Positions 10,628 to 45,027 of a DNA stretch of 64,000 nt are shown in pieces. The notes under the pieces were generated by a model, which had not been told where the DNA came from, ran no database searches, and saw only the letters and a list, made by a program, of their open reading frames with translations. Numbering within the stretch: the stretch's first letter is position 1; each line of letters opens with the position of its first letter. This stretch comes from a virus, in IMG/VR virus record IMGVR_UViG_3300045988_106448. One strand, 5' to 3'. Made by a program: the position numbers and the translations under genes.

Positions 10628-12727
10628 ATGATAAGATTTAATGAGGATGGGAAGCTGTCGCATAAGCAGCTTGACGCCGTTTTCAACACCACATTCAACG
10701 TCCTGGAGGCTCTCCCTACCAAGGCGTTGAATCAACTGTTGGACGGGTATGGCGGTGATGTCGATGAAATGATGAACGAGATATTTAAGCAAACGAATCA
10801 GGTGCTTAATTTAAACCATACCTTAGAAACCGAACGTCTTCAGTACGTTGATTGTCTTACGGAATCAATGGATGAAACGTTAAAGGTGAAATCTTACAAT
10901 TATTTCAAGACGACCATGCTGCCTTCCTTTAGACAAGGGTGGAGAAATTTAGAGTGGGGTAATATGGTGCAGTTATATCCTAGTAGTGCGTACCTTGCCG
11001 CTCGTTCACATGGAAAGTGTTTTATTGCGGGCACTCCAATTTTAATGGCAGATTTCACGGTTAAGAACGTGGAGGACATTTACCCCGGCATGGAAGTAAT
11101 GGGGATAGATTACACGCCTCGTAAAGTGCTTACCCGACATATAGGTGAGGGGCAAATGTTTAGGGTAGAACAAGAGAATGGCATCCCCTACGTGGTGAAT
11201 TTCTGGCACGTGATGTGTTTGTATGACACCAAGAAGAAAGCGTATGTGGAAATGCCGATGAACGAGTTTTATAAATACCCGGTAAAGAAGCAGCGTCGTT
11301 TTCAGGGGTATCGGGTATTTAGTCCGGACACACCAATCTTTGAAAAGAGTGATATTAGAGTGACTTGCATTGGTAGGGATTCTTATTACGGTTTCATGAC
11401 AGATGGTGATCATTTGTTCCAATTAGAAGATGGAACAGTGGTGCATAATTCTTACGAGTTTTGTTACGCCTTTCCATTGTGGAGGCTGTACACCTACAAA
11501 CGCCCCACGTTCATGAGGGCGGACACTCCCGATAATAAGAATCGTCAAGAAACTTGTATTATTACTAATACGGAAAAGTTGGGTAAGGAGCATATTGATA
11601 AAATTGCGGAGGAAATTAAAATTAATGATGCTCTAGGCTATCGTATTAACCCGAACGGAAAGGCGTCACTTGCTGCCACGGGTATAGAGGGGGAGAACGG
11701 TACGAAATTGCACTTGCGTGGAAAGGATGGGTTTATTCGTGGTTTGCACGTGGGGGCGGCGGTGAGCGATGACTTACCTGACGAATCCAGTATATACAGT
11801 TTGGAACAGCGTGAGAAATTGATTGATTTGTTCAACGGTACGATTTCACCTATTGTTGAGCCATACGGGTATAATCTTGTGGATGGAACCCCGTATCAAG
11901 AGAATGACCTTTACGCTAAGCTGAAAGAAGACCCCAAGTTTAAAGTATTCGAATACCCGGCAGTCTTTCCTGATGGACGTTTGCTCGCTCCCGACCGTTT
12001 CACGTTTAAGAAATTGATGGAGGAAAAACAATCATTGGGAACTATGGTGTTTAGCCGTGAGTATTTGGTTGTGCCAATCAGTGACGATAGTACGATATTC
12101 CCGTGGGAAATTCTTATGCGTAGCACGTATGGAATGGAAAAGTATATGTTAGTGAATAACATAGAATCTTTTCCTATTAAACTAGCCAAAGTAGTGATTG
12201 GGTGCGACTTTGCTGTTTCCGGTAACGTGGGGGCGGATTACACTTGTTATTCCGTTTGGGGTAAAGATTTGCTAGGGAATTATTATCTCCTATATATTTA
12301 TCGTGAAAAGGGGCTTTCTCATAACGAACAGTTGAATAAAATAATGCAGCTAGACCGTAGCTTTAAACCAAGCGAAATCGTAGTAGAAAATAACGGTTTC
12401 CAAAGCATACTTGCGGATATGGCACGTCAACAGGGTATTAGAAATATTACACCATTTACCACCACAGCCGGAAATAAGAAAGACTTACGTACTGGGTGGG
12501 TGTCGTTGGCAGCGTTGTTCGAGCGTGGGGCGATAAAATGCCCGTGGCATACCGATAGCCGTAAACAGGTCGAGCAAATGTTCGGGGAATTCAATAGTAT
12601 TGCATTTCGTCCGGACAAGGGAACGCTAGAAAGTATTAGCGGGCATGATGATACTGTGTCATCGGCGTTTATGGCTATTAACAAGTTGAGAGAGGGAACT
12701 ATTAGAGTAGTAGTAGATTCAATTTAA
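10628..12727 (+). CDS. terminase large subunit, interrupted by a mini-intein in Walker A
   Basis: Walker A is AARSHGK|S, split by the intein. The C-terminal RNaseH-like nuclease motifs are present (VIGCDFAVSGNVGADYTCYSV, GHDDTVSSAFMAI). Confidence 0.7.
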   Translation: MIRFNEDGKLSHKQLDAVFNTTFNVLEALPTKALNQLLDGYGGDVDEMMNEIFKQTNQVLNLNHTLETERLQYVDCLTESMDETLKVKSYNYFKTTMLPSFRQGWRNLEWGNMVQLYPSSAYLAARSHGKCFIAGTPILMADFTVKNVEDIYPGMEVMGIDYTPRKVLTRHIGEGQMFRVEQENGIPYVVNFWHVMCLYDTKKKAYVEMPMNEFYKYPVKKQRRFQGYRVFSPDTPIFEKSDIRVTCIGRDSYYGFMTDGDHLFQLEDGTVVHNSYEFCYAFPLWRLYTYKRPTFMRADTPDNKNRQETCIITNTEKLGKEHIDKIAEEIKINDALGYRINPNGKASLAATGIEGENGTKLHLRGKDGFIRGLHVGAAVSDDLPDESSIYSLEQREKLIDLFNGTISPIVEPYGYNLVDGTPYQENDLYAKLKEDPKFKVFEYPAVFPDGRLLAPDRFTFKKLMEEKQSLGTMVFSREYLVVPISDDSTIFPWEILMRSTYGMEKYMLVNNIESFPIKLAKVVIGCDFAVSGNVGADYTCYSVWGKDLLGNYYLLYIYREKGLSHNEQLNKIMQLDRSFKPSEIVVENNGFQSILADMARQQGIRNITPFTTTAGNKKDLRTGWVSLAALFERGAIKCPWHTDSRKQVEQMFGEFNSIAFRPDKGTLESISGHDDTVSSAFMAINKLREGTIRVVVDSI
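11018..11449 (+). mobile_element. mini-intein (Hint domain, 144 aa, no homing endonuclease domain) within the TerL P-loop
   Basis: Block A: CFIAGTPILMADF. Block B: VLTRH. Blocks F/G: GFMTDGDHLFQLEDGTVVHN, followed by the +1 Ser. Removing it restores Walker A as AARSHGKS. Confidence 0.65.
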
Positions 12728-12733
12728 AAGATT

Positions 12734-14314
12734 ATGAGTAAGAAAGTTGATGCCATTCTAAGCCCCACATTTGTCGAAGAAATGATGCGATTAGCATTCG
12801 CGAATAGAGAGTTCGCTAGGCTTGTCACGTCAAATATTGATTTAAGCAATTTCCCTAGGGAGTTAGGTGGCTGTAAAGCCATGTTAAAAGTATTGAATGA
12901 CAATATGAAGAACGGTCGCCATGCGACGTTCGGCATGGTTGAGATGGCTTATAGCAATAAAGAGGATGTCCTCAAAAAGATAAAGGATGTACAGGCGTTA
13001 CCCGTGCCAGAGGTAGAACCGATGGTGGATCAACTTGAAACCTTCCTAAAACGTCAGACGTTTGTTGCCACGCAACATGAAATTTCTGATATGTATAACG
13101 AAGGTAAACAAGAAGAAGCGATGGCGTTATTGGAGAAACGAATGATAGAAATCAATAGTTTCTCCCTAACTAAAGACAACGGGCAGTTTAGGCGTGTGTA
13201 CAGGGATTTTGATAAGAATATTAATACCATAGCCGCAAAAGCGGAAGACGAAACTCGTCGTTCGAAAATGCCTATCGGTATTACAACTATTGATGAGATT
13301 ACCGATGGGGGTATCCCCCGTCAGGACACGGTGTTAATGATCATGCGATCCGGTGTTGGTAAATCAACGGCGTTGAAATACATAGCGTGGTATAACACGG
13401 CGATAGCCCATAACCACGTTCTTCACGTGCAGTTAGAGGGTGGAGCGGATGAAGCGGTGGTAAAGTTTGACCAGATGATTGCCCATACCACCTATTCCAA
13501 AATTATGCGTGGTGATTTAACTGAGGAAACCCGGCTACGGGTGAAAGGGTTGATTAACCGGGCAAACCTTGTGAATAGTGATATTGACGTTTACGCCACG
13601 GAAGAGTTACTAGACCTCACGATTGGTGATCTAGTGCAGGTTATAGAGGATTACAAAAAGGAATACGGGTTTTACCCTGACCTCCTAACGTTGGATTCTA
13701 TAGACTTGTTATTGACGGGTGAAAGCCGCAAAATAGACTACGATCCCAACTTTATAAAATACCGCTTGCAAAAGTGTGCCCAACGGTTAAAAGATATTGC
13801 TAAGAAGTACGACATGGTTGTCGTGACAGCAACCCAAACCGGAGACGTGCCGTTTGAAGTATGGAACGATCCTAACCGGGTTATTACCCGTGCCAATACC
13901 GAAGGCGACCGTACATTGGTTAAGCCATTTTCATTCGTGTTAACGGGTAACGTTACGCTAGAGGAAGGAAAGAATAACATGATGCGGTTGTATTTTGATA
14001 AAATGCGTAATTACAAGAACAACGGTATTATAGTTAGAATTCCAACGAATTACGAGAATGGTTTCTTCTATGATATGGCACGTTCTTCTACATTGGAAAC
14101 CGTGTTGGACGTTTCAGCGTTAGAGAAACTAGAACGCCGGGGTAAAAATAAGGAAAGAGGGGTCAAAGAGGAGCGAGTAGAGATTCAACCGGGAGTGTAT
14201 GGCAGTAAGGTTGCCGACGGTGCGCCCGTGTCTAAAAGAGACTCTAGCGACGTTGTAGACGAACGTACCATGAAGGAATCATTTAAGGATTGGAATAAAC
14301 GCAATAGAAAATGA
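12734..14314 (+). CDS. DnaB-family replicative helicase
   Basis: RecA-like core LMIMRSGVGKSTALKYIAW....LHVQLEGGADE aligns with the DnaB Walker A and H2 region. N-terminal helical domain is present. Confidence 0.6.
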   Translation: MSKKVDAILSPTFVEEMMRLAFANREFARLVTSNIDLSNFPRELGGCKAMLKVLNDNMKNGRHATFGMVEMAYSNKEDVLKKIKDVQALPVPEVEPMVDQLETFLKRQTFVATQHEISDMYNEGKQEEAMALLEKRMIEINSFSLTKDNGQFRRVYRDFDKNINTIAAKAEDETRRSKMPIGITTIDEITDGGIPRQDTVLMIMRSGVGKSTALKYIAWYNTAIAHNHVLHVQLEGGADEAVVKFDQMIAHTTYSKIMRGDLTEETRLRVKGLINRANLVNSDIDVYATEELLDLTIGDLVQVIEDYKKEYGFYPDLLTLDSIDLLLTGESRKIDYDPNFIKYRLQKCAQRLKDIAKKYDMVVVTATQTGDVPFEVWNDPNRVITRANTEGDRTLVKPFSFVLTGNVTLEEGKNNMMRLYFDKMRNYKNNGIIVRIPTNYENGFFYDMARSSTLETVLDVSALEKLERRGKNKERGVKEERVEIQPGVYGSKVADGAPVSKRDSSDVVDERTMKESFKDWNKRNRK

Positions 14315-15357
14315 AATACGATAAGGATGCCATAATTGCTGAATTTAACCTTGTTAAGTTCGGAACCCAAGGTTGGTTGACCAACCGGAATATGGAATGT
14401 CCTTTTTGTGGAAGAACGGGTAAGTGGGGGATTATTTTTAACGAGAGCGGTATTGCAACGTTTCACTGTTGGAAATGCCCCCGCAAAACCTCCCTATACG
14501 AATTTCTAAAAAAGCTAAATAAAACCTCCCTAGCTAAAAAGACGTTTGTTCCAAACACGGCTAAGGACTTGGACAAGTGCCCTCGGCTTGATGCGGAAAT
14601 TCAAATGGATAAGGCAAATTGGATGGAAGAGGAAGAATCGGAAGAATTTAAAATTACCCCGGTTTCGTTGCCATTGAGGCTAAAACCTTTAGTTCACGAT
14701 GCTTATTTGGACGGTCGTGGTTTTAAGGAATGCCATTATAAAGAATTTGAACCCTCCTATACAGATTCACCGTTAAACCCCAAGTTGCAGAATTACATTA
14801 TCTTTAAGATAAAGATAGATGGCATTCCAGTGGCATGGTGGGCGAGAAGTAGAAATAGTAAGGAATGGCACAAGGCTAATCTGGAAGCGTATAAACGGGG
14901 AGAAGCTGATTTGGTTTTACGGTATAGAAACTCGGAAACGAATTTTCAGGACTTACTAGGCGGGTATGATGATATTATTGAAGGTAAAACGGAAACGGTT
15001 ATTATAGTGGAAGGTATCTTTGATAAGATAAATATTGATAACCTGTTAGGTCTTTCCGAGGTCGATGATATCAAATGTTGTTTCACGTTCGGTAATAATA
15101 TAGGGCGGGGGCAAATAGAGGCGATGCGCCGTAAGAAAGTTAAGACGGTTATTCTCTTATATGATTACGGCACGATAAACGAAAGTAAGGAAACGGCGTT
15201 TAGAATGAGAGATGTATTTGAGCAAGTGTACGTGACCGCTATACGGCAGGAGGGAGTTGATCCGGGTAATATTACGTTGGAATATTTAGAAGAAGTTTTA
15301 ACCCAAGCGACAGACCCTATAAACTTTTATGCGAATAAAGTGGAAGTAAAATTTTAA
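14311..15357 (+). CDS. DNA primase (Zn-finger + TOPRIM)
   Basis: N-terminal CPFCG....HCWKCPRK zinc ribbon. TOPRIM-like IIVEGIFDKI and LLYDYGTINE motifs. Confidence 0.55.
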   Translation: MKYDKDAIIAEFNLVKFGTQGWLTNRNMECPFCGRTGKWGIIFNESGIATFHCWKCPRKTSLYEFLKKLNKTSLAKKTFVPNTAKDLDKCPRLDAEIQMDKANWMEEEESEEFKITPVSLPLRLKPLVHDAYLDGRGFKECHYKEFEPSYTDSPLNPKLQNYIIFKIKIDGIPVAWWARSRNSKEWHKANLEAYKRGEADLVLRYRNSETNFQDLLGGYDDIIEGKTETVIIVEGIFDKINIDNLLGLSEVDDIKCCFTFGNNIGRGQIEAMRRKKVKTVILLYDYGTINESKETAFRMRDVFEQVYVTAIRQEGVDPGNITLEYLEEVLTQATDPINFYANKVEVKF

Positions 15358-15360
15358 GGT

Positions 15361-15831
15361 ATGGAAAACGAATATCGTATTAGTCACGAACAGTTCCTAA
15401 TTAATCTTCAGTTAGAGTACCTAACTCATAGATTAAGATCATTGATTTACCGAACAGCGTCTTACGCTCAGGTGGCGGCAGATATAGCATCTAAGAAAAG
15501 ATCGAAGATAGAGGATTTGGGAAAGAAATTTGGGATACGGACAATCTTTAGTCCGGGCTTTGACGTATTAGGGTTTGTAAACTTATATTTCTGGTCGGGG
15601 CGGGGTTTACCGCACTTCCAATATAAGGATGAGGAACAAAGAAGAGTACAAGGTAATTATGACAAATGGTATATTTTGTTTCGTGGAACACGAGTGAAAT
15701 ATAAAGGCAGGAGAACCGAAGTTGTTTCGAATAATCCTGTCCGGAAAGAGGTAATCGTCAAGACTCTTTCTGGCAATCAATTGGCGAAATATAGTGAATT
15801 AACAATTAAAAAAGATTTCGAATGGATTTGA
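15361..15831 (+). CDS. hypothetical protein
   Basis: 156-aa ORF. No motif recognised. Confidence 0.3.
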   Translation: MENEYRISHEQFLINLQLEYLTHRLRSLIYRTASYAQVAADIASKKRSKIEDLGKKFGIRTIFSPGFDVLGFVNLYFWSGRGLPHFQYKDEEQRRVQGNYDKWYILFRGTRVKYKGRRTEVVSNNPVRKEVIVKTLSGNQLAKYSELTIKKDFEWI

Positions 15832-16076
15832 AAATTGTAAACCACAGTACACATGAATTGCCCGTGTACAAGACAAAAGATTCGGCAGGAGCCGATTTAA
15901 GAGCGTTCTTACCTGAAGAGAAAGTTATTTACCTGCAACCGGGGGAACGTCGATTAATCCCTACTGGATTACACATGGCTATTCCGGAGGGGATGGTAGG
16001 ATTTATTTGCCCTCGTAGCGGTATGGCGGTAAAACAAGGTTTGACCGTTATTAACGCTCCGGGAGTAATAGACGCT
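15822..16076 (+). CDS. dut: dUTPase, exon 1 (N-terminal motifs I-III)
   Basis: SAGADLRA, IPTGL and CPRSGMAVKQGLTVINAPGVID match dUTPase motifs. The frame runs into a stop 7 codons after the conserved GVID. Exon boundary is approximate (+/- 3 nt). Confidence 0.7.
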
Positions 16077-16946
16077 AAACTTTTAATGACTGCCTAAGAT
16101 GTATCAAAGGTTCTTTATATTAATTTTGGTAACTTTGCATTCAAATAATAATGCTATGGGGAAATTTGATAGAGAACCAAATTGTCAATGTCCAATTTGT
16201 GGAATTAAAATGTGGGTTAAACCTTCTTCTTTAAGAAAGGCGAAACATGGGGTTTGTTGTTCTATGGAATGTTCTAGGAAATTACGTTCAAATTTTATGA
16301 CAGGTGTAGGGAATCATCAGTTTGGGTTGACAGGAAATTTGAATAGTTCCTTTAAACATAATGAGAAAATAAATTCGGCAGGTTATGTTATGGAAAATGT
16401 TCCTGGACACCCTAAAGGTGGAAAAATTCGAGAAAGGTCTAAAACAACTTATATTTTGAAACATAGATTAATTATTGAAAGAAATTGTGAAAAGTTTCCT
16501 CAAGAATTATTTGAAAATATAGGGGGTTGGATAGTTTTAAAAGATTGTTATGATGTTCACCATATAAATGAAGACAGAACTGACAATCGGTTAGAAAATC
16601 TTGAAATTTTAACTCGAGGTAAACATACTGCAATCCACAATTTAGAAAAGACAATTATAAGAGATGATACTACGGGTAGAATAATTGGTGTCTTTAAACG
16701 AGGTGAATTGCTGGGAAGTCCAGAGGTGGATAATCAGCAGCCAAGCATTAGTAGTAATACTTTTGAAGGTTCAACGACTAACAGCCGAATCCAAACAGAT
16801 AATGCTGAGGATAGTAATGCTGACACGAGTGCCTCGCCCCTATTTATAGGGTGAAGATATAGTCTGAACTTTGCAAATAACCTAAAAGTAAAGCAAAGAA
16901 ATAATAGGATAAAGAGCCTATTAGTGTAACAACTCCACATAAATTG
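16077..16946 (+). mobile_element. putative group I intron carrying an HNH homing endonuclease ORF, inserted in dUTPase
   Basis: The ~870-nt insertion sits exactly between dUTPase motif III (GVIDA) and motif IV (DYRGDVGV). Exon 1 ends in T and the last intron nucleotide is G, as in group I introns. The insert is AT-rich relative to its flanks. Confidence 0.55.
16099..16854 (+). CDS. HNH homing endonuclease (HNH_3-type), intron-encoded
   Basis: 251 aa. Cys-rich N-terminal part, then DVHHINEDRTDNRLENLEILTRGKHTAIHN (HNH motif). Confidence 0.65.
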   Translation: MYQRFFILILVTLHSNNNAMGKFDREPNCQCPICGIKMWVKPSSLRKAKHGVCCSMECSRKLRSNFMTGVGNHQFGLTGNLNSSFKHNEKINSAGYVMENVPGHPKGGKIRERSKTTYILKHRLIIERNCEKFPQELFENIGGWIVLKDCYDVHHINEDRTDNRLENLEILTRGKHTAIHNLEKTIIRDDTTGRIIGVFKRGELLGSPEVDNQQPSISSNTFEGSTTNSRIQTDNAEDSNADTSASPLFIG

Positions 16947-17141
16947 GATTACCGTGGAGACGTGGGTGTGCCTCTAATTAATTTGGGACAGGACGTTGAG
17001 AAAATTGAAGATGGCGACCGTGTGGCACAAATTGTTTTCGTGCCATTCGTGCAGGCGAATTTTCAGGTGGTAGCAACCGAAGCTGATCTTGGAGAAACTG
17101 AACGTGGTCAAGGAGGATTTGGACATACCGGGAAGAATTGA
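16947..17141 (+). CDS. dut: dUTPase, exon 2 (motifs IV-V)
   Basis: DYRGDVGVPLINLG, DRVAQIVFVP and the C-terminal RGQGGFGHTGKN arm motif. The tracked ORF starts at TTG 16944 only because the frame happens to be open there. Confidence 0.7.
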   Translation, partial: DYRGDVGVPLINLGQDVEKIEDGDRVAQIVFVPFVQANFQVVATEADLGETERGQGGFGHTGKN

Positions 17142-17185
17142 TAAAGATTTTGTCCAAGATATTAAACTTTTAAGACAAAAGTAAG

Positions 17186-17193
17186 TATATTTG
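17186..17193 (+). promoter_or_regulatory. Bacteroidetes-type -7 promoter element TAtaTTTG
   Basis: Matches TAnnTTTG 46 nt upstream of the 17239 start codon. Confidence 0.4.
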
Positions 17194-17238
17194 TATATCG
17201 AAACATGAATTACAGTTTTAAATAAATTAAAGAAGATT

Positions 17239-17943
17239 ATGGCAAACGCATTAGCAACTAGAGTAAAATTCCGTAAGTATTCGGCAGAGCAACTTCAGAA
17301 CGTTATCAACAATGAGGAATCAAACGAAGTAGAAATTCAGGTAGCGACAGAGTTATTGGAAAAGATGGGTGGAGCACCCGCACCCAAAGAAGCCCCGGTA
17401 GCCCCCGCAAAGAAAGAGGCTCCGAAGGTAAAGAAAGCCCCGGCTCCTAAAAAGGAAGAACCGAAAGCTGAGAAAGAAGACAAGGCTGAAAAGGAGTTAC
17501 CCGCTGACAAGTCACCGGAAGCGGCTGCAAAACGTCAGAACAAAAAGACAACGGAATACGTTTCGGATGAACAATTGACTCCGGCAGAACAAGCCCGCTT
17601 AGACAAGGCTGAAAAGGAGTTTGATGAACGCCAGAAAAACCGGAAAACCCCTTCCAAGTCTGACAAAACGATGAAGGAGAAGGCTCCTAAGACTGAAAGA
17701 GCAACCAAGCGTGAAAATCTTGAGGAATCAAACGAAGTACCGGGCTTGAAGGTTGGTAGCCAAGTAACCTTGAAAGAAGGTTCCGAGGTAGGTACGATTA
17801 CCCGTGTATATCTATCTTCGGATGGTAAAGAGAAATGTATGGTGAAGTTTGGTGATGCCAAACCAATCAAGAAGCGTGTGACGGCTGTGGAACTCGCAGA
17901 AGAAGCTAAACCGAAAGCCGCCCCGAAAAAAGCTAAGAAATAG
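17239..17943 (+). CDS. Lys/Ala/Pro-rich histone H1-like DNA-binding protein
   Basis: 234 aa. Long low-complexity AP/KK/E tracts (APKEAPVAPAKKEAPKVKKAPAPKKEEPKAEK) and a basic C-terminal tail (KPKAAPKKAKK). Confidence 0.4.
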   Translation: MANALATRVKFRKYSAEQLQNVINNEESNEVEIQVATELLEKMGGAPAPKEAPVAPAKKEAPKVKKAPAPKKEEPKAEKEDKAEKELPADKSPEAAAKRQNKKTTEYVSDEQLTPAEQARLDKAEKEFDERQKNRKTPSKSDKTMKEKAPKTERATKRENLEESNEVPGLKVGSQVTLKEGSEVGTITRVYLSSDGKEKCMVKFGDAKPIKKRVTAVELAEEAKPKAAPKKAKK

Positions 17944-18674
17944 TGAGCCCCACTATATATCTAGTCAAAGGTATTTCAGGAAGTGGCAAATCAACAAGGG
18001 TTTACCTATTCTTGGAATACCTTGAATCATTAGGGCTAGAATTGACACCCTTTAAATTTAAAACACTTGACGGAAAAGAAAAGGAAGTAGGAGTTTATTG
18101 TGAGGATTTGGATTTGATTTTCGTTGGGAAGTGGTACGAAAATGGCGGTGTACGCCGTTGGCAGGGGCACGACAGTATGACGGGGCGGTTATGTCATTCT
18201 GAAGGGCTTAGCTACTTCCTAAAGAGTGTTGCACAAAAGGGTCACAGTGTTGTTTTGGATGGTGCGGGTACGACGGCAACATGGCGGCTTAGACCCAAAT
18301 TCCTATTTGAGGACAACGGGTTTAAGAGTATTGTTCATATACGGTATGATTACAAGCCGGAGCAGTTGCAAGAATATTATGACCGGATCGAATACCGTTC
18401 TGGCGAGCCTCCCAAGGGGGATAGTATGTGGCGTAAAAGTAAAACCTTCCTACATGACTATCAAAAGGCTGTAGAAGAGGCTAAGATGGTTGTATCGGCA
18501 GGTTGCCACGTGTCTTTACATGATGAACCATACGATACCCCGGTTTACGATTTGGGTGTTAGAATTTTGGAGCACGTGGGTTTGGAAGACGTGCAAGATG
18601 AGTTCATCGCTTATTGTCAAAATTCAGATTATCTAATTAAAAACTCCTTTAATGAATTCCAGAAAATAAAATGA
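17943..18674 (+). CDS. P-loop kinase (AAA_33 / polynucleotide- or nucleotide-kinase-like)
   Basis: Walker A LVKGISGSGKST near the N-terminus, 243 aa. Candidate nucleotide or DNA kinase. Confidence 0.45.
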   Translation: MSPTIYLVKGISGSGKSTRVYLFLEYLESLGLELTPFKFKTLDGKEKEVGVYCEDLDLIFVGKWYENGGVRRWQGHDSMTGRLCHSEGLSYFLKSVAQKGHSVVLDGAGTTATWRLRPKFLFEDNGFKSIVHIRYDYKPEQLQEYYDRIEYRSGEPPKGDSMWRKSKTFLHDYQKAVEEAKMVVSAGCHVSLHDEPYDTPVYDLGVRILEHVGLEDVQDEFIAYCQNSDYLIKNSFNEFQKIK

Positions 18675-19459
18675 AATTTCGAGGGCGTATATATTGTATA
18701 GAATGTACTGTAAATCATAAGTGGTATATTGGTCAAACTTCTAGAAGTTTACAAGTTCGGATGAATGGGCATATCAAGTTAGCTCTGAGGGGAGGGGAAT
18801 TTGCTTTAAGTCGTGCTATACGAAAATACGGCGTTGAAAACTTTGTAATCGAGGAAATCATGTGGGTTGAGGCTCCTAATAAACATTCTCTAAAACAGAA
18901 ACTCGATTTTCTGGAACGCCATTTTATAGCCCGTTACGACACGAAACATACGGGCTATAATATGACGGAAGGAGGAGAAGGTGTATTAGGAATTCAATTT
19001 GATGAAGAGTCTAGAATAAAAATGTCTGAATCTGCTAAAAATAGATGCGATGAAAATTTTAGAAGAAGACAATCTATTGTTGCTAAACGTTTATGGCAAA
19101 AGGAATCTTTTCAAAAGTTAAGGTCAGAAGCCGCCCATTTGAATTTATTAAATAAAGAAGTTCAGAAAAAGATGGGTTTGGCTCGCCGAGGATTAAAGTT
19201 TACTGAAGAGCATAAGAAGAAAATAGGTTTAGCCGTAAGCGGGGAAAGGAATGGTATGTATGGGAAAAGCCACCCAAAAGAATTTATTGAAAAATTTACT
19301 AAGAAAGTTTATCAATATACTCCAGAGGGGGTTTTAGTGAAAGAATGGTTTTCTATTATTGATATTAAAAGAGAATTGAAAATAGGCAGAAAATGTTTAA
19401 AGAAAGCTATTGCAAATCAATTTATTTATCATGGTTATATTTGGAAATTTAAAAGATGA
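18671..19459 (+). CDS. GIY-YIG homing endonuclease with NUMOD3-like repeats (free-standing)
   Basis: GIYCIEC...KWYIGQTSRSL.R...H gives the GIY-YIG motif. Repeated EEHKKKIGLAVSG / RNGMYGKSH NUMOD-like DNA-binding modules. AT-rich relative to flanks. Confidence 0.7.
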   Translation: MKFRGRIYCIECTVNHKWYIGQTSRSLQVRMNGHIKLALRGGEFALSRAIRKYGVENFVIEEIMWVEAPNKHSLKQKLDFLERHFIARYDTKHTGYNMTEGGEGVLGIQFDEESRIKMSESAKNRCDENFRRRQSIVAKRLWQKESFQKLRSEAAHLNLLNKEVQKKMGLARRGLKFTEEHKKKIGLAVSGERNGMYGKSHPKEFIEKFTKKVYQYTPEGVLVKEWFSIIDIKRELKIGRKCLKKAIANQFIYHGYIWKFKR

Positions 19460-20454
19460 AAAAGAATAAAATTATTCCAGTCCCTAACGAAAATTTTCAA
19501 TATTATTTGTATTGGATTACTAAAAGAATGGAAATTTTTTGGAACAAATACGAGGGTAAACCCGCCCCATGGACGGACGATCCTATATTACAAAAATATA
19601 AATTTTGTAATACGTACAGGTGCCTCGACAGAGTTAGTCAGTACCTGTTGAGCCACGTGATTTACAACGGTAAGGATTACGAACCGGAAGATATGTTTTA
19701 CCGCATATTGTTGTTCAAACATTTTAACAAGATAGAAACATGGGAAGCGATTGAAAAAGAATTAGGGGATATTACCCTTAATGTGGAATTAGAAGACATT
19801 GCCAAATGTCTTGATGATATGGTAAAACGAGGCATTACCATTTATGGAAGTGCTTATATTATTAATTGTTGTTTCTACCAATTACCGGAGTATTCCTACA
19901 TGAAGGGGATGTCTAAACACCGGGCACACTTTAGCGTGTTTCAACGTGAAATTTTTGACAACGGGCATATTTATGACTTCCTAGACGCACAGTCATTAGA
20001 GGAGTTGTTTTGGGTATTCCGTAAGATGAAAATATACGGGGACTTTACGGCACAACAATACGCCATTGACATGAATTACAGCCCTCTGTTTGACTTTAAC
20101 GAAAATGATTTTGTTATAACCGGACCGGGTTCAATTCGAGGAATTGAGAGGACTTTTCAGAATGCCCGTGGGTGTGATTACGTGGGTGTGATGAAATGGG
20201 TTCTTGCCCATTTTACGGAGTTGATGTATGAACAAGAAAAGGAGAAAGGTTTCACATTTCGTCCACTTCCTAATCGTATGCCCACGTTGATAGACTTGCA
20301 AAATTGCTTCTGTGAAACGGATAAATATTTGCGGGGTGCCGGGGTTGAAACAGAAGGATTAAAAGTGAAAGGCGAGCGGATTAAACACACTTACGAGGCG
20401 AACCGTAATAAAATTAAATACACGTTGCCACCTAAGTGGAATGTGAAACTTTAA
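19456..20454 (+). CDS. hypothetical protein (332 aa) in the nucleotide-modification neighbourhood
   Basis: No motif I can assign by eye. Translationally coupled to the downstream ThyA-fold gene. Confidence 0.3.
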   Translation: MKKNKIIPVPNENFQYYLYWITKRMEIFWNKYEGKPAPWTDDPILQKYKFCNTYRCLDRVSQYLLSHVIYNGKDYEPEDMFYRILLFKHFNKIETWEAIEKELGDITLNVELEDIAKCLDDMVKRGITIYGSAYIINCCFYQLPEYSYMKGMSKHRAHFSVFQREIFDNGHIYDFLDAQSLEELFWVFRKMKIYGDFTAQQYAIDMNYSPLFDFNENDFVITGPGSIRGIERTFQNARGCDYVGVMKWVLAHFTELMYEQEKEKGFTFRPLPNRMPTLIDLQNCFCETDKYLRGAGVETEGLKVKGERIKHTYEANRNKIKYTLPPKWNVKL

Positions 20455-21521
20455 TTTCAAGAACCATGTTTTTACAAGCTGAAAATTTAAACGAGGCATT
20501 TATTTGCCTTTGTCAAGAACTATTTTATCACGGCGAAGACGTGACCCGGCGTGGCTTTAAATGCCGGGAAATTCCTCGAGCGGTGTTAGTGGAAATTACC
20601 AATCCAGTAGACCGTTATGTGCGTGTGCCAGAGCGCAAATGGAATAAGGTGTTGGGGTGGGTTGAATCCCTATGGATCGCTCGTGGGGATAATGCTTTAG
20701 AAATGCCTGCTGCCTATGTTAAGAACCTGAAGAATTTCAGTGATGACGGCATACACATGAGAGCCGGGTACGGTCCGAGATTCAGACATTATGGGGATAA
20801 CGGGGAATTTAAACCATTGTTTAATCTTCCTATTTCAACAGGATTTCCCGTTGACCAACTTAGATTTGTCATTGAAAAATTTAAGGAGGACATTGACACA
20901 CGGGAAGCGGTGGTTACTATTCATGACCCTGTAATGGACGATTTCGGTCCCGTAGATAACAGTGGGGTGGCTCCTGTTTTACGAACAAAGGACACTCCAT
21001 GCACCCGGTCAATTCATTTCATGATTGTGAACGGTGCGATGAATTGCTACGTTGACATTCGGAGTAATGATGTTGTATGGGGCTTTAGTGCCGTGAACGT
21101 GTTTAACTTTACGTTAATGCAGGAATACGTCGCCGCTCTGGTAGGCGTGCCCGTGGGTAAGTATTACCACAAGGCTGATAACTTGCACGTGTATGAAAAC
21201 TTCTTACCGTTGGTGGAGGAGATTGCCAAGAAGTACACGGGTAACGAATACCCTTCTGGAACCCGGTTCGCTTACAAACCCTCCTACAAAACTCTTCAAG
21301 AGTTTGATGCTTACATAGGTAAACTCAGCACCTTCGAAGAATTGTGTAGAGGGAAGAAAGTTCCGGCAGAAGAATTGGAAGTGATACTTAGAACCTTTAC
21401 CGATGACTTATTTAACGATTGGGCTAAAGTGTTCTTCACCTACTGGACTAAACACCCGGTAGAGTTTACCAATCCGTTGTTAAACGAAATATTTTGTTTT
21501 GATGAATTACGAGAAAATTGA
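20436..21521 (+). CDS. thymidylate synthase-fold enzyme (ThyA or dUMP hydroxymethylase-like)
   Basis: Aligns to the ThyA core: PCTRSIHFMIV..NCYVDIRSNDVVWGFSAVNVFNFTLM....ADNLHVYEN against PCHAFFQFYV...[25 protein letters not shown]...GDTHLYSNH. The catalytic Cys and the uracil-specifying Asn are conserved. The protein is about 100 aa longer than ThyA. Confidence 0.65.
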   Translation: MECETLISRTMFLQAENLNEAFICLCQELFYHGEDVTRRGFKCREIPRAVLVEITNPVDRYVRVPERKWNKVLGWVESLWIARGDNALEMPAAYVKNLKNFSDDGIHMRAGYGPRFRHYGDNGEFKPLFNLPISTGFPVDQLRFVIEKFKEDIDTREAVVTIHDPVMDDFGPVDNSGVAPVLRTKDTPCTRSIHFMIVNGAMNCYVDIRSNDVVWGFSAVNVFNFTLMQEYVAALVGVPVGKYYHKADNLHVYENFLPLVEEIAKKYTGNEYPSGTRFAYKPSYKTLQEFDAYIGKLSTFEELCRGKKVPAEELEVILRTFTDDLFNDWAKVFFTYWTKHPVEFTNPLLNEIFCFDELREN

Positions 21522-22041: not shown

Positions 22042-22711
22042 AGTTATTGGGTTGGTAGGTGTAATTGGTAGTGGAAAAAGCTATACTTTAAAACGTCTTA
22101 AAGAGGAGGCTTCCAACACCTCCAGATTATTTATAGAAGGTGACTTTAGTGAAGGTATTCGTCAATTTATCATGAACATTTACGTGGGTAATGACGTGCC
22201 GATAGATGTGAATGGTGGAGCGTATGCCAAATGGAAGGCACATCCTAATGAAATTGCGTTACCCGTGTTTAGAGATGATGCCGGGAATTTATCATGCGGT
22301 ACGATTACCGGGCGCAAACTACTTCAACGGGTTGGAGAGTACATGAAGGCGATGGCAGGTAATGACGTTTGGGCTAAGTGGACGAAGACAGACGTTATGC
22401 GGGCATATAACAAGGCTTGTCTGATTTACCCCACGGCTAAGATTGAAGAAATGACAATTACTTTCGGGTCGGTGCGTTTCTTATGTGAAGCCCAAGTGGT
22501 TTTTGACGTGGCAACCCTTACCGATAAAGAACCCGTGATTATCTTTTGCAACCACAAGTCAGATTCCTACGAGTTGAATGATCACGTTAGTGAAGCATTT
22601 GCTCGGCACTTTGTTGATTTGGGTTACAAGGACGGTCAAGACATTACCGCCGAGGTACGTAGATTATTATTAAATTCAGAAAAGGATGAAAGATTTTCTA
22701 GCATATCTTGA
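22031..22711 (+). CDS. P-loop nucleotide kinase-like protein
   Basis: N-terminal Walker A VIGLVGVIGSGKSYT, 226 aa. Size and context suggest a dNMP/nucleotide kinase. Confidence 0.45.
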   Translation: MKGKVIGLVGVIGSGKSYTLKRLKEEASNTSRLFIEGDFSEGIRQFIMNIYVGNDVPIDVNGGAYAKWKAHPNEIALPVFRDDAGNLSCGTITGRKLLQRVGEYMKAMAGNDVWAKWTKTDVMRAYNKACLIYPTAKIEEMTITFGSVRFLCEAQVVFDVATLTDKEPVIIFCNHKSDSYELNDHVSEAFARHFVDLGYKDGQDITAEVRRLLLNSEKDERFSSIS

Positions 22712-25700
22712 GAGAAATTTAATGGATTATACCCTGATATCAGATTACGTTGTTGATATCGGGGGTAAGACATTCGAGTTATACAAGCCCGCTCATGATG
22801 GAGCGTTATTCGATGACGACTTTAATTTCGTGGGGATTCCCGCTAATCCTGACCGGGCTTCGGTAGAGGAATCGTCTACGGAAACTGAATGTGATTTTTA
22901 CGCTTACCGTTTCGGTGGGGTGTGGTATATGCTACCACGAGGAAAAGAGAACGAGGTAAAATTGATTCGGTTAAAATACGTGGGTGCGGCACTTCAGGAA
23001 GTTCCTACACGGGTATTTCTGGGGGTGCATGGTCAGTACGAAATGATGTCCGGGTCAGGCACGTATAAAGAATGGTGCCAGAAGGCGAAGTTTTTAGGGG
23101 TTCACACGTTAGGTATCTGTGAGAAAAACAGTTTAGCCGGGGCGTTAAAATTCCAAACGGAATGTATCGCTGCCGGGTTAAAGAGCGTGATTGGAATGGA
23201 GTGCAGCGTGTATGATGAACCAAACGATTATGCTTTCACGGCTAAGGTGTACGCTCGCAATGAAAAGGGATGGAAGGACTTGTTGACAATAAACAAGTTT
23301 ATAAATTGTGACAATCCTAAATATATAGGAGTTGCCGACTTTCGGAATATTACTCGTGGCAATAATGATCTTGTGGTATTTTTAGACCCCAAGGCGTTGG
23401 ACTATGACAAGATTGGAATGTTGGGTATTGCGGGGATTACCAATTTATACCAATTAGACCCGGCTATATACACCGCCGAAAAGCGTGACGAGTGGTACTT
23501 GAAGAATCTTAAAAAGTTCTTTCATGACAAGTCGCTGACAGCCGTGGCGGCTATTGATGCGTGGTATTTGGATGAAGAATACAGTTGTATTCGACCTCGG
23601 TTACACAGCATGGGGAACACGATAGCCTATGCAAGTGAGAATCAGTATTTCAAATCAAACGATGAATACTTGTTAGAATTGTCAGAGTTATTCCCTAAAA
23701 CTGATGAAGGGTTCGAAATGGCGTATAACAAATTCATGGATGCGATAGACGTGTTGGAAAACGTTGCCGAGGCGATTACCTTTACCATAGACGTCAAGAA
23801 ACGCCACTTACCCCACTACAAAATGACAAAGGAGGAGGCGGCAGAGTTTGACAACAATGAGGATCTCTTTTGGTCTCTTATAGACAAGGGGCTTGAGGCT
23901 CATCCTGACTTAATTGAGGATTGGGGTGAAGAGGTTATTATGGAGCGTATTGAGAGGGAAGTGGGGGTTATAAAGCTAGGTGAAGCGATTGATTACTTTT
24001 TAATCACGTGGGACATTATCAATTGGTGCCACCGTAACGGTATCATGACGGGGATTAGTCGTGGGAGTGCCGGAGGTTGTTTGGTATCATATCTGTTGGG
24101 TATTACCAAACTTGATCCCATGCGGTATGACTTACTGTTCGAGCGTTTCTTGAATGCGGGTCGTGTGAAGGTTTCCCTACCTGATATTGACTGTGATTAC
24201 CCCGGTGAAGACCGTCCTCGTGTAAAGAAGTACATGGAGGAACGTTACGGGTGGAAACAGGTGTGTTCGGTAGGAACGTACAGTGCTCTACAATTACGTG
24301 CGGCTCTTAAAGCCTTGTCACGGGTGTACGGTTTGCAATTCAAGGACGTTAACGACATGATGAAGTTGTTTGACGTGAAAGACCGTAAGCCGGAAGACCT
24401 GTTTAAGATAGCGTGTGCCCACCCCGTTGTTAAACACTTTGTCAAGGAACACCCGGATTTGATTAACGAAGCGATGCTCGTGATGCCCGCACCGTTGGCG
24501 CAGTCTATTCATGCTTGCGCCATGATGGTATTCCCAGATGAAAACGATATGTTTAGATGGGTGCCTATTCGTAAACAGGGGGACGAGTACGTTACCGAAT
24601 GGGAAGGTGGTGAGATGGATGCAGCCGGGTTCTTGAAAGAAGACGTGCTAGGGGTGAAACAGTTTGACAAGTTTCAGGACATGGTACGTTTGATTAAAGA
24701 ACATGAAGGTGTAGACCTTGATATTTTTAGCGTGCCGTTGGATGACCCTGAAGTGTACGCCTATTTCCAAAATGGGTGGAATGAAGATAACTTCCACTTC
24801 GGCAGTAACGGGCTAACCGGGTATTGCAAGCAAATGAAGCCTGAAAATATAGAGGACTTGATTGCGGCTATATCCCTGTACCGCCCCGGTGCGATGGAGA
24901 ACAACTTCCATAATGAATACGTGTTGCGTAAGGAGGGCACTAACAAGGTAGAGTATTTCGTTGGTACGAAAGATATTCTTAAGAATACGTATGGAGTGTT
25001 CGCTTATCAGGAACAGATCATGCAGTTATGCCGAGAGTTAGGAGGGTTGTCATTGGTGGAAGCAGATGACGTGCGTAAAGCGATGGTGAAGAAGAAGTAC
25101 GAGGCGTTACAGCAATACAAGGAAAGATTTATTCCCTATTACCGGGATAACTACGGCGTTAGCCAAGAATACAGCGAGAAGGTGTGGGATGCCATTGACA
25201 AGGCTTCAACGTACTTGTTTAACCGTAGCCACGCCGCCGCCTATGCCATTACCGGATACATTTCCCAATGGATTAAGGTGCATTATCCGATAGAGTATTG
25301 GTCGGTAGCGTTTAAATACGCCCAAGACTTTGATTACCCCCGGTACATTGCGGAAATTAATAAGACGGGGGTCTGCACGGTGCGTCCTGTGGATATTAAC
25401 TTGTCGGCGTTGGATGTTACCATTAACTTTAAAGAAAAGGCTCTGTATTGGTCTATAACCGGAATAAAACAAGTAGCGGAAAAAGCCGCAACCCAAATTT
25501 TAAAAGAGCGTGAAGAGAATGGTGATTACTATTCGTTGGATGATTTCGTGGTTCGGCATAAATGGAAGGGTTCGGCGGTTAATAGCCGTATCATACGAAA
25601 CCTAATTTTAGCGGGGGCGTTTGACAAGTTGGAAAACGTGCAGGAACCTTCAGATCGTATTGATTTGTTGATTAATTTCTTAGGTTCTACTAATACCGAA

Positions 25701-26171
25701 ATTAAAGATGATGACCCGGTACTTGAAGGGGCTGACAAGCACATGGGAGATGCGTGGTGGTGGGCACTCATGCAAAAGAAAGTGTCCGGGTTGGCATTCT
25801 TTGATTATCGTGGCATTTACGAACGATACGGTGGGGGACAATTCCCGCCCGAGTACGTGTATTCTGAAATAGAGGAGTGTCAAGGTGAAACCCTTCCTAA
25901 CGGTAATCAGGTTATTGTAGCCGGGTTCGTTACGGAGTTTGAACTTAAGAAGACACGTAAGGGCGAAATGATGTGTAAAATACTGTTGGAAAATAATTAT
26001 GACTTCCTAGAAGTTATGGTATTCCAATCAGAGTTTGAAACATTAAGGGACTACCTGACCGGGCGTGGGGACATCATCATGCTGAATGGCTCGATAGCGT
26101 ATGATAAACGCAAGGAAGTAAACATTTTAAGGGCGAATTTCGAAACGAATATCGTCACTTTAACGTTATAA
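22686..26171 (+). CDS. dnaE: DNA polymerase III alpha subunit (DnaE-type, PHP domain)
   Basis: N-terminal PHP domain (FLGVHGQYEMMSGSGTY...HTLGICEKNSLAGALKFQ....LKSVIGMEC). Pol III alpha palm/fingers motif NRSHAAAYAITGYISQWIKVHYP. 1161 aa. Confidence 0.8.
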   Translation: MKDFLAYLERNLMDYTLISDYVVDIGGKTFELYKPAHDGALFDDDFNFVGIPANPDRASVEESSTETECDFYAYRFGGVWYMLPRGKENEVKLIRLKYVGAALQEVPTRVFLGVHGQYEMMSGSGTYKEWCQKAKFLGVHTLGICEKNSLAGALKFQTECIAAGLKSVIGMECSVYDEPNDYAFTAKVYARNEKGWKDLLTINKFINCDNPKYIGVADFRNITRGNNDLVVFLDPKALDYDKIGMLGIAGITNLYQLDPAIYTAEKRDEWYLKNLKKFFHDKSLTAVAAIDAWYLDEEYSCIRPRLHSMGNTIAYASENQYFKSNDEYLLELSELFPKTDEGFEMAYNKFMDAIDVLENVAEAITFTIDVKKRHLPHYKMTKEEAAEFDNNEDLFWSLIDKGLEAHPDLIEDWGEEVIMERIEREVGVIKLGEAIDYFLITWDIINWCHRNGIMTGISRGSAGGCLVSYLLGITKLDPMRYDLLFERFLNAGRVKVSLPDIDCDYPGEDRPRVKKYMEERYGWKQVCSVGTYSALQLRAALKALSRVYGLQFKDVNDMMKLFDVKDRKPEDLFKIACAHPVVKHFVKEHPDLINEAMLVMPAPLAQSIHACAMMVFPDENDMFRWVPIRKQGDEYVTEWEGGEMDAAGFLKEDVLGVKQFDKFQDMVRLIKEHEGVDLDIFSVPLDDPEVYAYFQNGWNEDNFHFGSNGLTGYCKQMKPENIEDLIAAISLYRPGAMENNFHNEYVLRKEGTNKVEYFVGTKDILKNTYGVFAYQEQIMQLCRELGGLSLVEADDVRKAMVKKKYEALQQYKERFIPYYRDNYGVSQEYSEKVWDAIDKASTYLFNRSHAAAYAITGYISQWIKVHYPIEYWSVAFKYAQDFDYPRYIAEINKTGVCTVRPVDINLSALDVTINFKEKALYWSITGIKQVAEKAATQILKEREENGDYYSLDDFVVRHKWKGSAVNSRIIRNLILAGAFDKLENVQEPSDRIDLLINFLGSTNTEIKDDDPVLEGADKHMGDAWWWALMQKKVSGLAFFDYRGIYERYGGGQFPPEYVYSEIEECQGETLPNGNQVIVAGFVTEFELKKTRKGEMMCKILLENNYDFLEVMVFQSEFETLRDYLTGRGDIIMLNGSIAYDKRKEVNILRANFETNIVTLTL

Positions 26172-43413: not shown

Positions 43414-45027
43414 ATGGACATTAAAGTATTATTTGACGATTCAGCCCGTGAAGGCTTGTATGAAGGGGTGAAACAAATTACCCGTGCCGTGGCTTCTACA
43501 CTCGGACCGAAAGGACACACGGTTATCATTGATAAAGGTTATGGCATTCCCCACGTGACCAAAGACGGGGTAACGGTGGCTCGTGCCTTTGATACGGATG
43601 ACACCGTGGCTCGCATGGGTGCAACCCTCGTTAAGATGGCAGCCGCTAAAACGTGTGACGAAGCCGGAGACGGTACCACTACCGCCACCATTCTTACGGA
43701 AGCTCTCATACGGTTAGGGATGGAAAAGATGCACCTCGTGAAAAATCCACAACAATTTAAACGAGGAATTGAACGTGCTTGTGAAGAGGCGGTAGCCTTC
43801 ATTGACAATTTGAAATATGAAATCGATCCTACGGATTTTACCCGGTTAGAACAAATTGCTACCATTTCAGCGAATGGAGACGTGGAGATAGGAAAGGTAA
43901 TTACCGGGGCTATTCAACAAGTGGGCAACGATGGGATCATCACCGTGGAAGAAGGTGATAACTCTTCTGAGATAACGGTTGATATCACGACAGGATTCCA
44001 ATGGTCAAAGGGGCTTGTCAATCCCTATTTCGTAACCGATCGAGAACGTATTGAATGCGTGTTAGACAATCCATACGTTCTAATACTAGGGCAGAAAGCC
44101 AATTACCCGCAAGAAATTCTTCCGGTGGTTCAAACCGTGTACACCGCTAAACGTAGTTTACTTATTGTCGCTCCAGACGCCTCTAACGACGTCATAAAGT
44201 TCCTCGTAACGAACATTGCCAAGGAAAACGGGTTAAAGGCTTGCTTCGTTAAAGCCCCCGGCTATGGACAGGTTCAGAAGGATATGTTGGAAGACCTAGC
44301 CGTGAAGATGGGCGGTAAGGTGGTTGGAGGGGAATCCGCTCAAACCATTGAACAACTAGGTACAGATTGGTTAGGTGAATGTGATAGAGCGGTTGTCACC
44401 TCTACTCAAACCACCCTAGTTGGAGGGGCGGGTACCGAAGAGGAAATTCAAACCCGTGTCAAGGCTATCAAGAACCAGATTGATGACACCTCTAACACCT
44501 TTGATAAAGAGAAGTACCGTGAACGCATTAGCAAGTTAACCGGGGGAGCCGCCGTGATACACGTTGGAGCCACTAGCGAGGTTGAGATGAAGGAACGCAA
44601 AGACCGAGTAGACGATGCCATAGCCGCCACACGTGCAGCCATTGACGAGGGCTACGTGCCGGGTGGAGGTATGATGCCATATCAGGCAGCACAATATCTA
44701 ACGGGTTGGACAACCAATACCACGGAGGATGAACGTGTGGGAATTGAAGTGGTAATCGGGGCTTTACGTGCACCTTTCCGTCAATTGTGCATGAATGCCG
44801 GGGTAAACCCTGATAAATACGAAGCGGTAATAGAAACCAAAATCGGAAGTGAGTGGCGCAAGGGGATTGACTTTTCTTCCATGTGCATCGTGAATTTGTT
44901 TGAGATTGGGGTAATTGACCCCGTTAAGGTTACACGCCTTGCGTTGCAGAACGCCGTGAGCGTTGCCATACAGTTCCTAAATACTTCGTGTGTTATGGCT
45001 GAGCCGCCTAAAGACAAGAAGTCATGA
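43414..45027 (+). CDS. groEL: GroEL-type chaperonin (Cpn60)
   Basis: 537 aa, collinear with GroEL: ASTLGPKGHTVIID, DGVTVARAF, AGDGTTTATILTEALI, the apical domain, then a C-terminal hydrophobic tail. Confidence 0.9.
   Translation: MDIKVLFDDSAREGLYEGVKQITRAVASTLGPKGHTVIIDKGYGIPHVTKDGVTVARAFDTDDTVARMGATLVKMAAAKTCDEAGDGTTTATILTEALIRLGMEKMHLVKNPQQFKRGIERACEEAVAFIDNLKYEIDPTDFTRLEQIATISANGDVEIGKVITGAIQQVGNDGIITVEEGDNSSEITVDITTGFQWSKGLVNPYFVTDRERIECVLDNPYVLILGQKANYPQEILPVVQTVYTAKRSLLIVAPDASNDVIKFLVTNIAKENGLKACFVKAPGYGQVQKDMLEDLAVKMGGKVVGGESAQTIEQLGTDWLGECDRAVVTSTQTTLVGGAGTEEEIQTRVKAIKNQIDDTSNTFDKEKYRERISKLTGGAAVIHVGATSEVEMKERKDRVDDAIAATRAAIDEGYVPGGGMMPYQAAQYLTGWTTNTTEDERVGIEVVIGALRAPFRQLCMNAGVNPDKYEAVIETKIGSEWRKGIDFSSMCIVNLFEIGVIDPVKVTRLALQNAVSVAIQFLNTSCVMAEPPKDKKS

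Follow-up and report, generated by a model that had tools for sequence, protein, structure and literature searches.

The dUTPase gene (dut) of an uncultivated phage is interrupted by 870 nucleotides (nt) at positions 16077–16946 of a 64-kb stretch of viral DNA, IMG/VR record IMGVR_UViG_3300045988_106448, which was analyzed at full length and is called the window below. The sequence argues strongly that the insert is a mobile group I intron lying in the motif III codons of the gene, and we put the probability of this reading at about 0.92. The intron is probably active and recently mobile, as judged from its intact fold and from the exon flanks that it shares with a relative. The direct observations are the ribozyme homology, a covarying fold, an exact junction, the presence or absence of the intron in related phages and the shared flanks. 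An earlier note on this DNA had proposed a putative group I intron at the same place; the Rfam match, the covarying fold and the exact intron-less junction all speak in favor of that proposal.

The interrupted dUTPase gene and the ribozyme fold

The N-terminal part of the dUTPase is encoded by an open reading frame (ORF) that runs from ATG 15822 to ...NAPGVIDA, with T16076 as the last base of exon 1. The frame of exon 1 continues for six codons (KLLMTA) into the insert and then meets a TAA at 16095–16097, which would be expected to end the translation of unspliced RNA. Since the length of the insert is a multiple of three (3 × 290), exon 2 is in frame with exon 1. The joined exons encode a protein of 149 amino acids (aa), which matched the Pfam dUTPase family PF00692 with 97.7 bits over profile positions 4–129 of 129. 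The insertion of about 870 nt described in the earlier note was thus recovered with both flanks in one frame and with a joined product that fits the family. Its description as AT-rich was also borne out, the G+C content being 33.2% in the insert against 45–48% in the exons and 43.0% in the 64-kb window, and the terminal bases were as described, T16076 for exon 1 and G16946 for the insert. The motif map of the note stood in part: the insert does lie in the dUTPase, but not between motifs III and IV. In the usual numbering of dUTPase motifs, GVIDA/DYRGD (the slash marking the insertion point) is motif III itself, so the insert cuts this motif.

The earlier note had suggested a comparison with intron-less alleles, and these were found. 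A search with the joined protein returned two uninterrupted dUTPases of 149 aa, P0001 (97% identical over its full length) and P0002 (88%), both of which read GVIDADYRGD without a break. P0001 is encoded on contig L010 within the same neighborhood, consisting of a 156-aa gene, dut, a 234-aa gene and HMUD2. The joined exons aligned to L010 without gaps, with 427 of 450 nt identical, and L010 carries precisely the predicted junction, GVIDA/DYRGD. Because the alignment is gapless and both proteins read GVIDADYRGD, the limits of the insert are exactly 16077–16946. The intron-less site of the L010 type is ...GGTTATTGATGCC/GATTACCGTGG..., or in a longer form GGGGGTTATTGATGCC/GATTACCGTGGTGAC, and the ligated-exon junction predicted for the phage of the window is ...AATAGACGCT/GATTACCGTGG....

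The ribozyme was detected with the Rfam group I model RF00028 (Intron_gpI), which matched 16647–16888 on the plus strand with 58.7 bits (E = 2.6e-12; model positions 1–253 of 253), above the gathering score of 50 bits. This was the sole Rfam match in the window, at gathering thresholds and with permissive filters alike. The core sits in the 3' third of the insert (Table 1). Exon 1 ends in the 5' strand of P1, and the wobble pair U16076•G16687 marks the 5' splice site. The internal guide sequence, which supplies the 3' strand of P1, lies 5 nt upstream of P3 and leaves no P2. The UAAUU of the guide sequence (16682–16686) also pairs with GAUUA (16947–16951), the first five nt of exon 2, to form P10. 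Rfam itself placed P1 and P2 at 16651–16690, and we rejected this placement; it contains several non-standard pairs, whereas the covarying P1 uses the exon end about 610 nt upstream, without a P2. In the intron of the window, every helix of the fold supported by covariation consists of standard pairs, and the invariant core segments are unchanged. P7 is separated from the P3 3' strand by an additional pair of helices, which would correspond in position to P7.1/P7.2 of subgroup IA, an assignment that is our inference.

The fold was compared across homologous introns. Conserved words of the core, used in two exact-word scans of IMG/VR, gave 33 loci, to which protein look-ups added L010 and L011. 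At least 20 IMG/VR loci turned out to be dUTPase genes interrupted at a common position, G-x-[IL]-D-x / x-Y-[RK]-G. Alignment A2 contained 23 distinct introns with the ORF loop removed, and its structure comprised P1, P3, P4, P5, P6, P6a, P7, P7.1, P7.1a, P8, P9, P9.1 and P10; L009, L013, L015, L022, L023, L031 and L035 entered it without the P1 5' strand. For the capsid-gene intron of L009, no confident placement of the 5' splice site was obtained.

In A2, 93.9% of the cells of the structure were paired, as compared with 31–43% when the partners were slid by 1–3 columns. Double-sided changes occurred in 42 of the 68 pairs, and the covariation score was 0.376 against 0.136 in shuffled alignments, none of the 500 shuffles reaching the observed value. 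Covariation was found in P3, P5, P6a, P7, P7.1a, P8, P9 and P9.1. No information comes from P4, P6 and most of P7, which do not vary; the outer pair of P7 alternates between A-U and G-C (11 and 12 sequences, respectively) across the bulged base. The model-based check suggested in the earlier note gave a score above the gathering score, and strong covariation in 23 introns supported a P1, P3–P9.1 and P10 fold; each of the computational checks proposed there favored a group I intron.

U•G occupies the 5' splice site in 15 of the 16 alleles with letters at that pair, and double changes are seen at six of the seven positions of P1. The guide sequence changes along with the codon before the splice site, and P1 and P10 track the exon codons in six allele types. 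Exon end and guide read AGACGCU and GGUGUCU in the window, L011 and L024; AGACGCU and GGCGUCU in L007; AGACUAU and GUAGUCU in crAssphage; UGACUCU and GGAGUCA in L016, L019 and L027; AGACUGU and GCAGUCU in the L017 group; and AGACUCU and GGAGUCU in L033. P10 covaries with exon 2 as well, the pairings being GAUUA with UAAUU, GGUUA with UAACU, and AAUU with AAUU. Copies of the same dUTPase intron that lack the ORF measure 251 nt (L021), 282 nt (L024), 305 nt (L033) and 389 nt (L016). In three of them (L021, L024 and L033), P1 is a plain hairpin of exon end and guide sequence directly beside P3. This indicates that, in the window, the body of the endonuclease ORF has been inserted into the P1 loop and that P2 is absent.

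Table 1. Positions of the dUTPase exons, the intron and its elements in the window. For helices, the slash separates the two strands.
Feature	Position	Strand	Remarks and basis
dUTPase exon 1	15822–16076	+	85 codons; motifs I and II and first half of motif III; ORF list, Pfam, L010 alignment
Tract near-identical to L011	15969–16981	+	Intron plus flanks of 108 nt (exon 1) and 35 nt (exon 2) that are read as co-converted
P1 5' strand, AGACGCU	16070–16076	+	Final 7 nt of exon 1; pairs with GGUGUCU, 16687–16693
Group I intron	16077–16946	+	870 nt; intron-less allele, P1/P10 covariation, terminal G, RF00028
TAA stop in the exon-1 frame	16095–16097	+	6 codons inside the intron; sequence and ORF list
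HNH homing endonuclease ORF	16156–16854	+	232 aa from the most likely start, ATG 16156; mechanical ORF start ATG 16099
HNH catalytic motif region, DVHHINEDRTDNRLENLEILTRGKHT	16549–16626	+	HNH_3 residues 151–176; invariant in three-way alignment
Internal guide sequence, UAAUU followed by GGUGUCU	16682–16693	+	16687–16693, P1 3' strand; 16682–16686, P10 strand
Ribozyme core and 3' domain	16699–16922	+	Rfam alignment, structure on alignment A2, pair counts
P3	16699–16703/16832–16836	+
P4	16709–16714/16734–16739	+
P5	16719–16722/16727–16730	+
P6	16740–16742/16768–16770	+
P6a	16746–16753/16758–16765	+	GUAA loop
P7	16774, 16776–16780/16860–16865	+	Bulged C16775
P7.1	16782–16785/16819–16822	+	Inner helix 16789–16792/16809–16812
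P8	16838–16843/16846–16851	+
P9	16869–16874/16893–16898	+
P9.1	16903–16908/16917–16922	+
Terminal guanosine (omega G), 3' splice site	16946	+	G before exon 2 in all dUTPase-hosted homologues
dUTPase exon 2	16947–17141	+	DYRGDVGV...RGQGGFGHTGKN; second half of motif III and motifs IV and V; stop 17139–17141

The intron-encoded endonuclease and the signs of homing

The insert carries an intact ORF (16099–16854, 251 aa), as claimed before, and the assignment to the HNH_3 type was upheld by a Pfam match of 31.6 bits (cut-off 24.8) at residues 151–176. The most likely start is ATG 16156, because the conservation shared with the L007 and crAssphage proteins begins at MGKFDREPNC. The protein of the window is 78% identical to the ORF product of the L007 intron and 45–48% identical to gp35 of crAssphage, and the pattern DVHHIN...N..NL..LTR..HT.IHN is conserved in both. 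This HNH enzyme presumably cuts or nicks intron-less alleles near ...GATGCC/GATTAC....

While the body of the ORF occupies the P1 loop, its last ~55 codons overlap P3–P8, and its TGA (16852–16854) falls in J8/7. The final ~55 residues are the best-conserved part of the protein, since their sequence is dictated by the ribozyme core. From this arrangement, the core should be unable to fold while the tail is being translated, and vice versa. When the 55-aa tail encoded by the core was used as a protein query, the matches were 26 short hypothetical ORFs (55–96 aa) and nothing else, a result that is no measure of the abundance of the lineage.

The same core lineage, compared over window 16694–16854, was also seen in other genes. 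It is accompanied by a LAGLIDADG ORF in a DnaB-like helicase gene (L004), by a GIY-YIG ORF in a class-II-like ribonucleotide reductase gene (L005) and by HNH variants in capsid-like genes (L006, L009). All four ORFs read through the ribozyme core and share the tail ELL..P..NQQPS..EGSTTNSR..SNADTS. The tail frame is open in most copies, ORF-less ones included, and one other frame is closed by the UGA in G-UGA-AUUG.

Traces of recent movement were found in the exon flanks. L011 comes from a diverged relative that has the same intron. Along the tract shared with L011, the window differs at three positions (16533, 16831 and 16834) in 1013 nt. Outside the tract, most of the flanking 100-nt bins are 60–90% identical, with a background of about 76%. 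In the comparison with the intron-less L010, the gene upstream of dut is 98.7% identical, and 13 of the 23 mismatches within dut cluster in coding positions 198–267, that is, from 57 nt upstream to 12 nt downstream of the junction at 255. Taken as sequence patterns, the L011 tract and the L010 mismatch cluster are what is expected from homing with co-conversion of exon flanks. The intron site is occupied in dUTPases with a mutual identity of only ~29–63%.

Two of the differences from L011 fall in or next to P3. At L011 positions 3729 and 3732 (window 16831 and 16834), G is replaced by A and U by A, and the second replacement creates an A·A mismatch in P3 (CGAGG against CCACG). This may reflect early decay of the ribozyme or an assembly error. 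Truncated endonuclease ORFs were found in L003 and L016. Together with the ORF-containing and ORF-less copies and the clear co-conversion tracts, such decayed copies make up a data set for the homing cycle.

Proposed splicing and homing and the alternatives

We infer the catalytic steps, the splicing in vivo and the target of the endonuclease as follows. In the pre-mRNA, AGACGCU at the end of exon 1 would pair with the GGUGUCU of the guide sequence, so that P1 presents U16076, and the core P3–P9.1 would fold immediately downstream of the guide. Exogenous guanosine bound at P7 would then attack the 5' splice site after U16076. UAAUU would next pair with the first five nt of exon 2, P10 thereby aligning this exon, and the freed 3'-OH of exon 1 would attack after G16946. 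Ligation would yield GAC GCU/GAU UAC and the 149-aa dUTPase. During co-infection, the HNH enzyme would nick or cut dUTPase alleles that lack the intron, close to the insertion site, and repair from the intron-bearing copy would bring in the intron along with short exon flanks. None of this alters the mechanism of group I introns as it is known.

Several points weigh against this picture. Self-splicing and the spliced mRNA are predictions from the fold. The Rfam alignment is poor at P1/P2, the true P1 5' strand lying ~610 nt upstream. A 7-nt P1 is not statistically compelling by itself, given that 1.6 kb of sequence contain 41 sites with pairing at 6 or more of the 7 positions; the case rests on the covariation and the junction. 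Ribosomes that translate the endonuclease ORF could disrupt folding, since this ORF overlaps the catalytic core, and the sister copy in L011, with its A·A mismatch in P3, demonstrates that such copies can decay. A PDB sequence search with the HNH protein gave only chance-level matches to unrelated proteins (E ≥ 0.017), and we found no paper describing the ribozyme fold or the splicing of the related crAssphage dUTPase intron.

We weighed three other explanations. The dUTPase gene might be split by a free-standing homing endonuclease gene, with no splicing at all; its pieces (91 aa, and ~65 aa from TTG 16944) would be made separately and would either assemble or be non-functional. T4-like phages provide examples of genes split in this way, and free-standing endonucleases exist in this genome, e.g., the GIY-YIG/NUMOD3 ORF at 18671–19459. 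Exon 1 also has its own stop, and a TTG-start ORF at 16944 covers exon 2. Nevertheless, the two pieces are separated by an entire group I ribozyme whose P1 and P10 match. Its guide pairs with exactly both exon ends and covaries with the exon codons in other alleles, the break falls inside the catalytic motif III, and the ORF-less copies still interrupt dUTPase genes, which is sensible only if the RNA is removed. We give the split gene hardly any weight; the earlier note had likewise judged it unlikely, and with such a core in place it is unneeded.

A genuine group I intron that no longer splices, leaving dut a pseudogene in this phage, is quite improbable as well. The standard pairs in all helices and the unchanged invariant segments speak against it, as do the exons, which are free of stops and frameshifts and encode a protein 97% identical to that of an intact allele, and the intact HNH ORF. 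What can be said for it is that intron copies can decay, as seen in the P3 of L011 and in the truncated endonuclease ORFs of L003 and L016. An intein or a group II intron can be discarded. The insert has a length that is a multiple of three and continues in the frame of the exons, and the phage carries an intein elsewhere, with a Hint domain in the terminase ORF (10628–12727). The in-frame TAA six codons after exon 1 excludes an intein, however, and in the insert ORF, Pfam finds HNH_3 only and no Hint domain; as for group II, the Rfam matches in the window comprise RF00028 and no group II model. An active group I intron remains our preferred reading. Gene callers report the dUTPase region as three fragments, which would suggest a phage without a working dUTPase; the proper annotation is a single joined 149-aa coding sequence plus an intron-encoded HNH gene.

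Host phage and relation to known introns

The window appears to come from an uncultivated Bacteroidota phage outside the crAss-like group. Its DnaE-type DNA polymerase III alpha subunit (22686–26171, +) has its best phage relatives in Tenacibaculum phage Larrie and Cellulophaga phage phiST (39% aa identity), as compared with 30% for the Bacteroides DAC phages. The window also encodes a Baseplate_J protein (1308–2480, +), a GroEL-type chaperonin (43414–45027, +), RecA, an NAD-dependent ligase and 5-hydroxymethyldeoxyuridine (5-hmdU) DNA kinases. When 14000–19000 was searched for near-identity in a phage collection without this phage itself, only 185 nt of the intron core matched, and no record was similar at the DNA level beyond this core. 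Since the phage looks non-crAss-like, the same intron lineage is present at the same dUTPase site in apparently unrelated Bacteroidota phages.

Beside dut lie the 5-hmdU kinase genes HMUD2 (17943–18674, +) and HMUDK_hel (19456–20454, +) and a thymidylate-synthase-like ORF of 361 aa (20436–21521, +). This neighborhood suggests a route from dUMP to hypermodified thymidine in which the dUTPase provides the precursor. The interrupted enzyme thus probably feeds the adjacent thymidine-hypermodification pathway, with its ThyA-like and 5-hmdU kinase genes.

Two further elements were observed in the window. The TerL ORF (10628–12727, +; 699 aa) contains Terminase_6C at residues 524–686 and Hom_end_hint at residues 131–200, and the Hint domain points to an intein inside TerL. 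The free-standing GIY-YIG/NUMOD3 gene (18671–19459, +) is located between HMUD2 and HMUDK_hel. Over ~18600–19320, the window is 97–100% identical to L011, as against ~71–90% in the neighboring DNA, and in the intron-less L010 the two kinase genes are adjacent, with a GIY-YIG gene after both. The GIY-YIG gene looks like a second recently mobile element.

Phage group I introns with homing endonucleases are familiar from td, nrdB and nrdD/sunY of T4, and from the DNA polymerase gene of the SPO1 family, whose intron encodes the HNH nicking enzyme I-HmuI. The Bacillus nrdE/nrdF introns are likewise group I introns with homing endonucleases (PMC2248736). The intron of the window resembles these in its position within a conserved catalytic motif of an essential enzyme of DNA-precursor metabolism, in additional helices (P7.1/P7.2) of the subgroup IA type that separate P7 from the P3 3' strand, in the in-frame stop just inside the intron, and in presumed homing with co-conversion of exon flanks, driven by an endonuclease of the HNH or another type. 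At the sequence level, the comparison covered the shared Rfam model. The present case differs in its host gene, a dUTPase gene, in having no P2, and in the location of the ORF, which is found in P6a, P8 or P9.1 in those introns but in the P1 loop here, continuing through P3–P8.

Gut Bacteroides phages often harbor group I introns that carry homing endonucleases (PMC7886860, PMC12880540), and in the Jug jumbo phages metatranscriptome reads confirm the splicing of 37 of 76 predicted introns (PMC12880540). The present phage shares the ecological setting of these gut Bacteroides and Phocaeicola phages (crAss-like Delta and Zeta, PMC7886860; Jug, PMC12880540), which belong to the gut Bacteroidota phages with dense group I introns, inteins and HNH, GIY-YIG and LAGLIDADG endonucleases; the window likewise has the TerL intein and the free-standing GIY-YIG gene. 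Their introns reside in the genes for the major capsid protein, PolB, primase, TerL and nrdD, and not in dUTPase genes, and this window differs further in having only one detectable group I intron.

The closest known relative is the intron in the dUTPase gene of crAssphage, which was also the only case that came up when the literature was searched for dUTPase introns of other phages. Over window positions 16690–16870, the core is 85% identical at the nucleotide level to those of Carjivirus communis (the prototype crAssphage) and crAssphage LMMB. In BK010471, KP06_gp34 is annotated as 'Dut dUTPase, contains intron insertion' and KP06_gp35 as 'intron-encoded HNH endonuclease', and the split of the crAssphage dUTPase has been described in nine contigs (PMC7551546), as compared with the at least 20 IMG/VR dUTPase loci found here. 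The crAssphage intron scored 65.9 bits with RF00028 in E-value mode with relaxed filters, above the gathering score. The null result of the gathering mode on the crAssphage loci L001/L002 (2946–3202) was a filter artefact, the 65.9 bits being obtained with less sequence and laxer filters. Because the gathering mode missed this copy, default-filter scans can miss introns of this lineage.

Both introns are inserted one codon after the motif III aspartate (G-x-[IL]-D-x / x-Y-R-G), have the same arrangement of guide sequence and P3 without a P2, and encode homologous HNH proteins (45–48% aa identity) whose tails read through the core. The host dUTPases, in contrast, share only ~29% local identity, and P1 shows compensating changes, AGACUAU with GUAGUCU in crAssphage against AGACGCU with GGUGUCU here. 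With 1016 nt, the crAssphage intron is longer; a further Cys-rich repeat stands at the N terminus of its HNH protein, and the stop of its HNH ORF comes 13 nt later, in the 3' strand of P7.

The element is thus a mobile element of a well-known kind with an already annotated homologue in crAssphage, which lowers its novelty. What is mildly new is the cross-family distribution, the placement of the ORF in the P1 loop, from where it reads on through the core, and the great clarity of the co-conversion tract. As a tentative and somewhat doubtful extension, a single intron lineage might have spread horizontally between unrelated Bacteroidota phage families (crAss-like on the one hand, DnaE-encoding and baseplate-bearing on the other), always at dUTPase motif III. 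The endonuclease gene in the P1 loop would then be obligatorily dual-coding with the core, the HNH, GIY-YIG and LAGLIDADG ORFs of the sister introns reading P3–P8 in the same frame, so that translation and folding would be mutually exclusive and temporally coupled. The crAssphage dUTPase intron, earlier recognized from a handful of contigs, belongs to a widespread lineage that crosses phage-family boundaries in the viromes of gut Bacteroidota.

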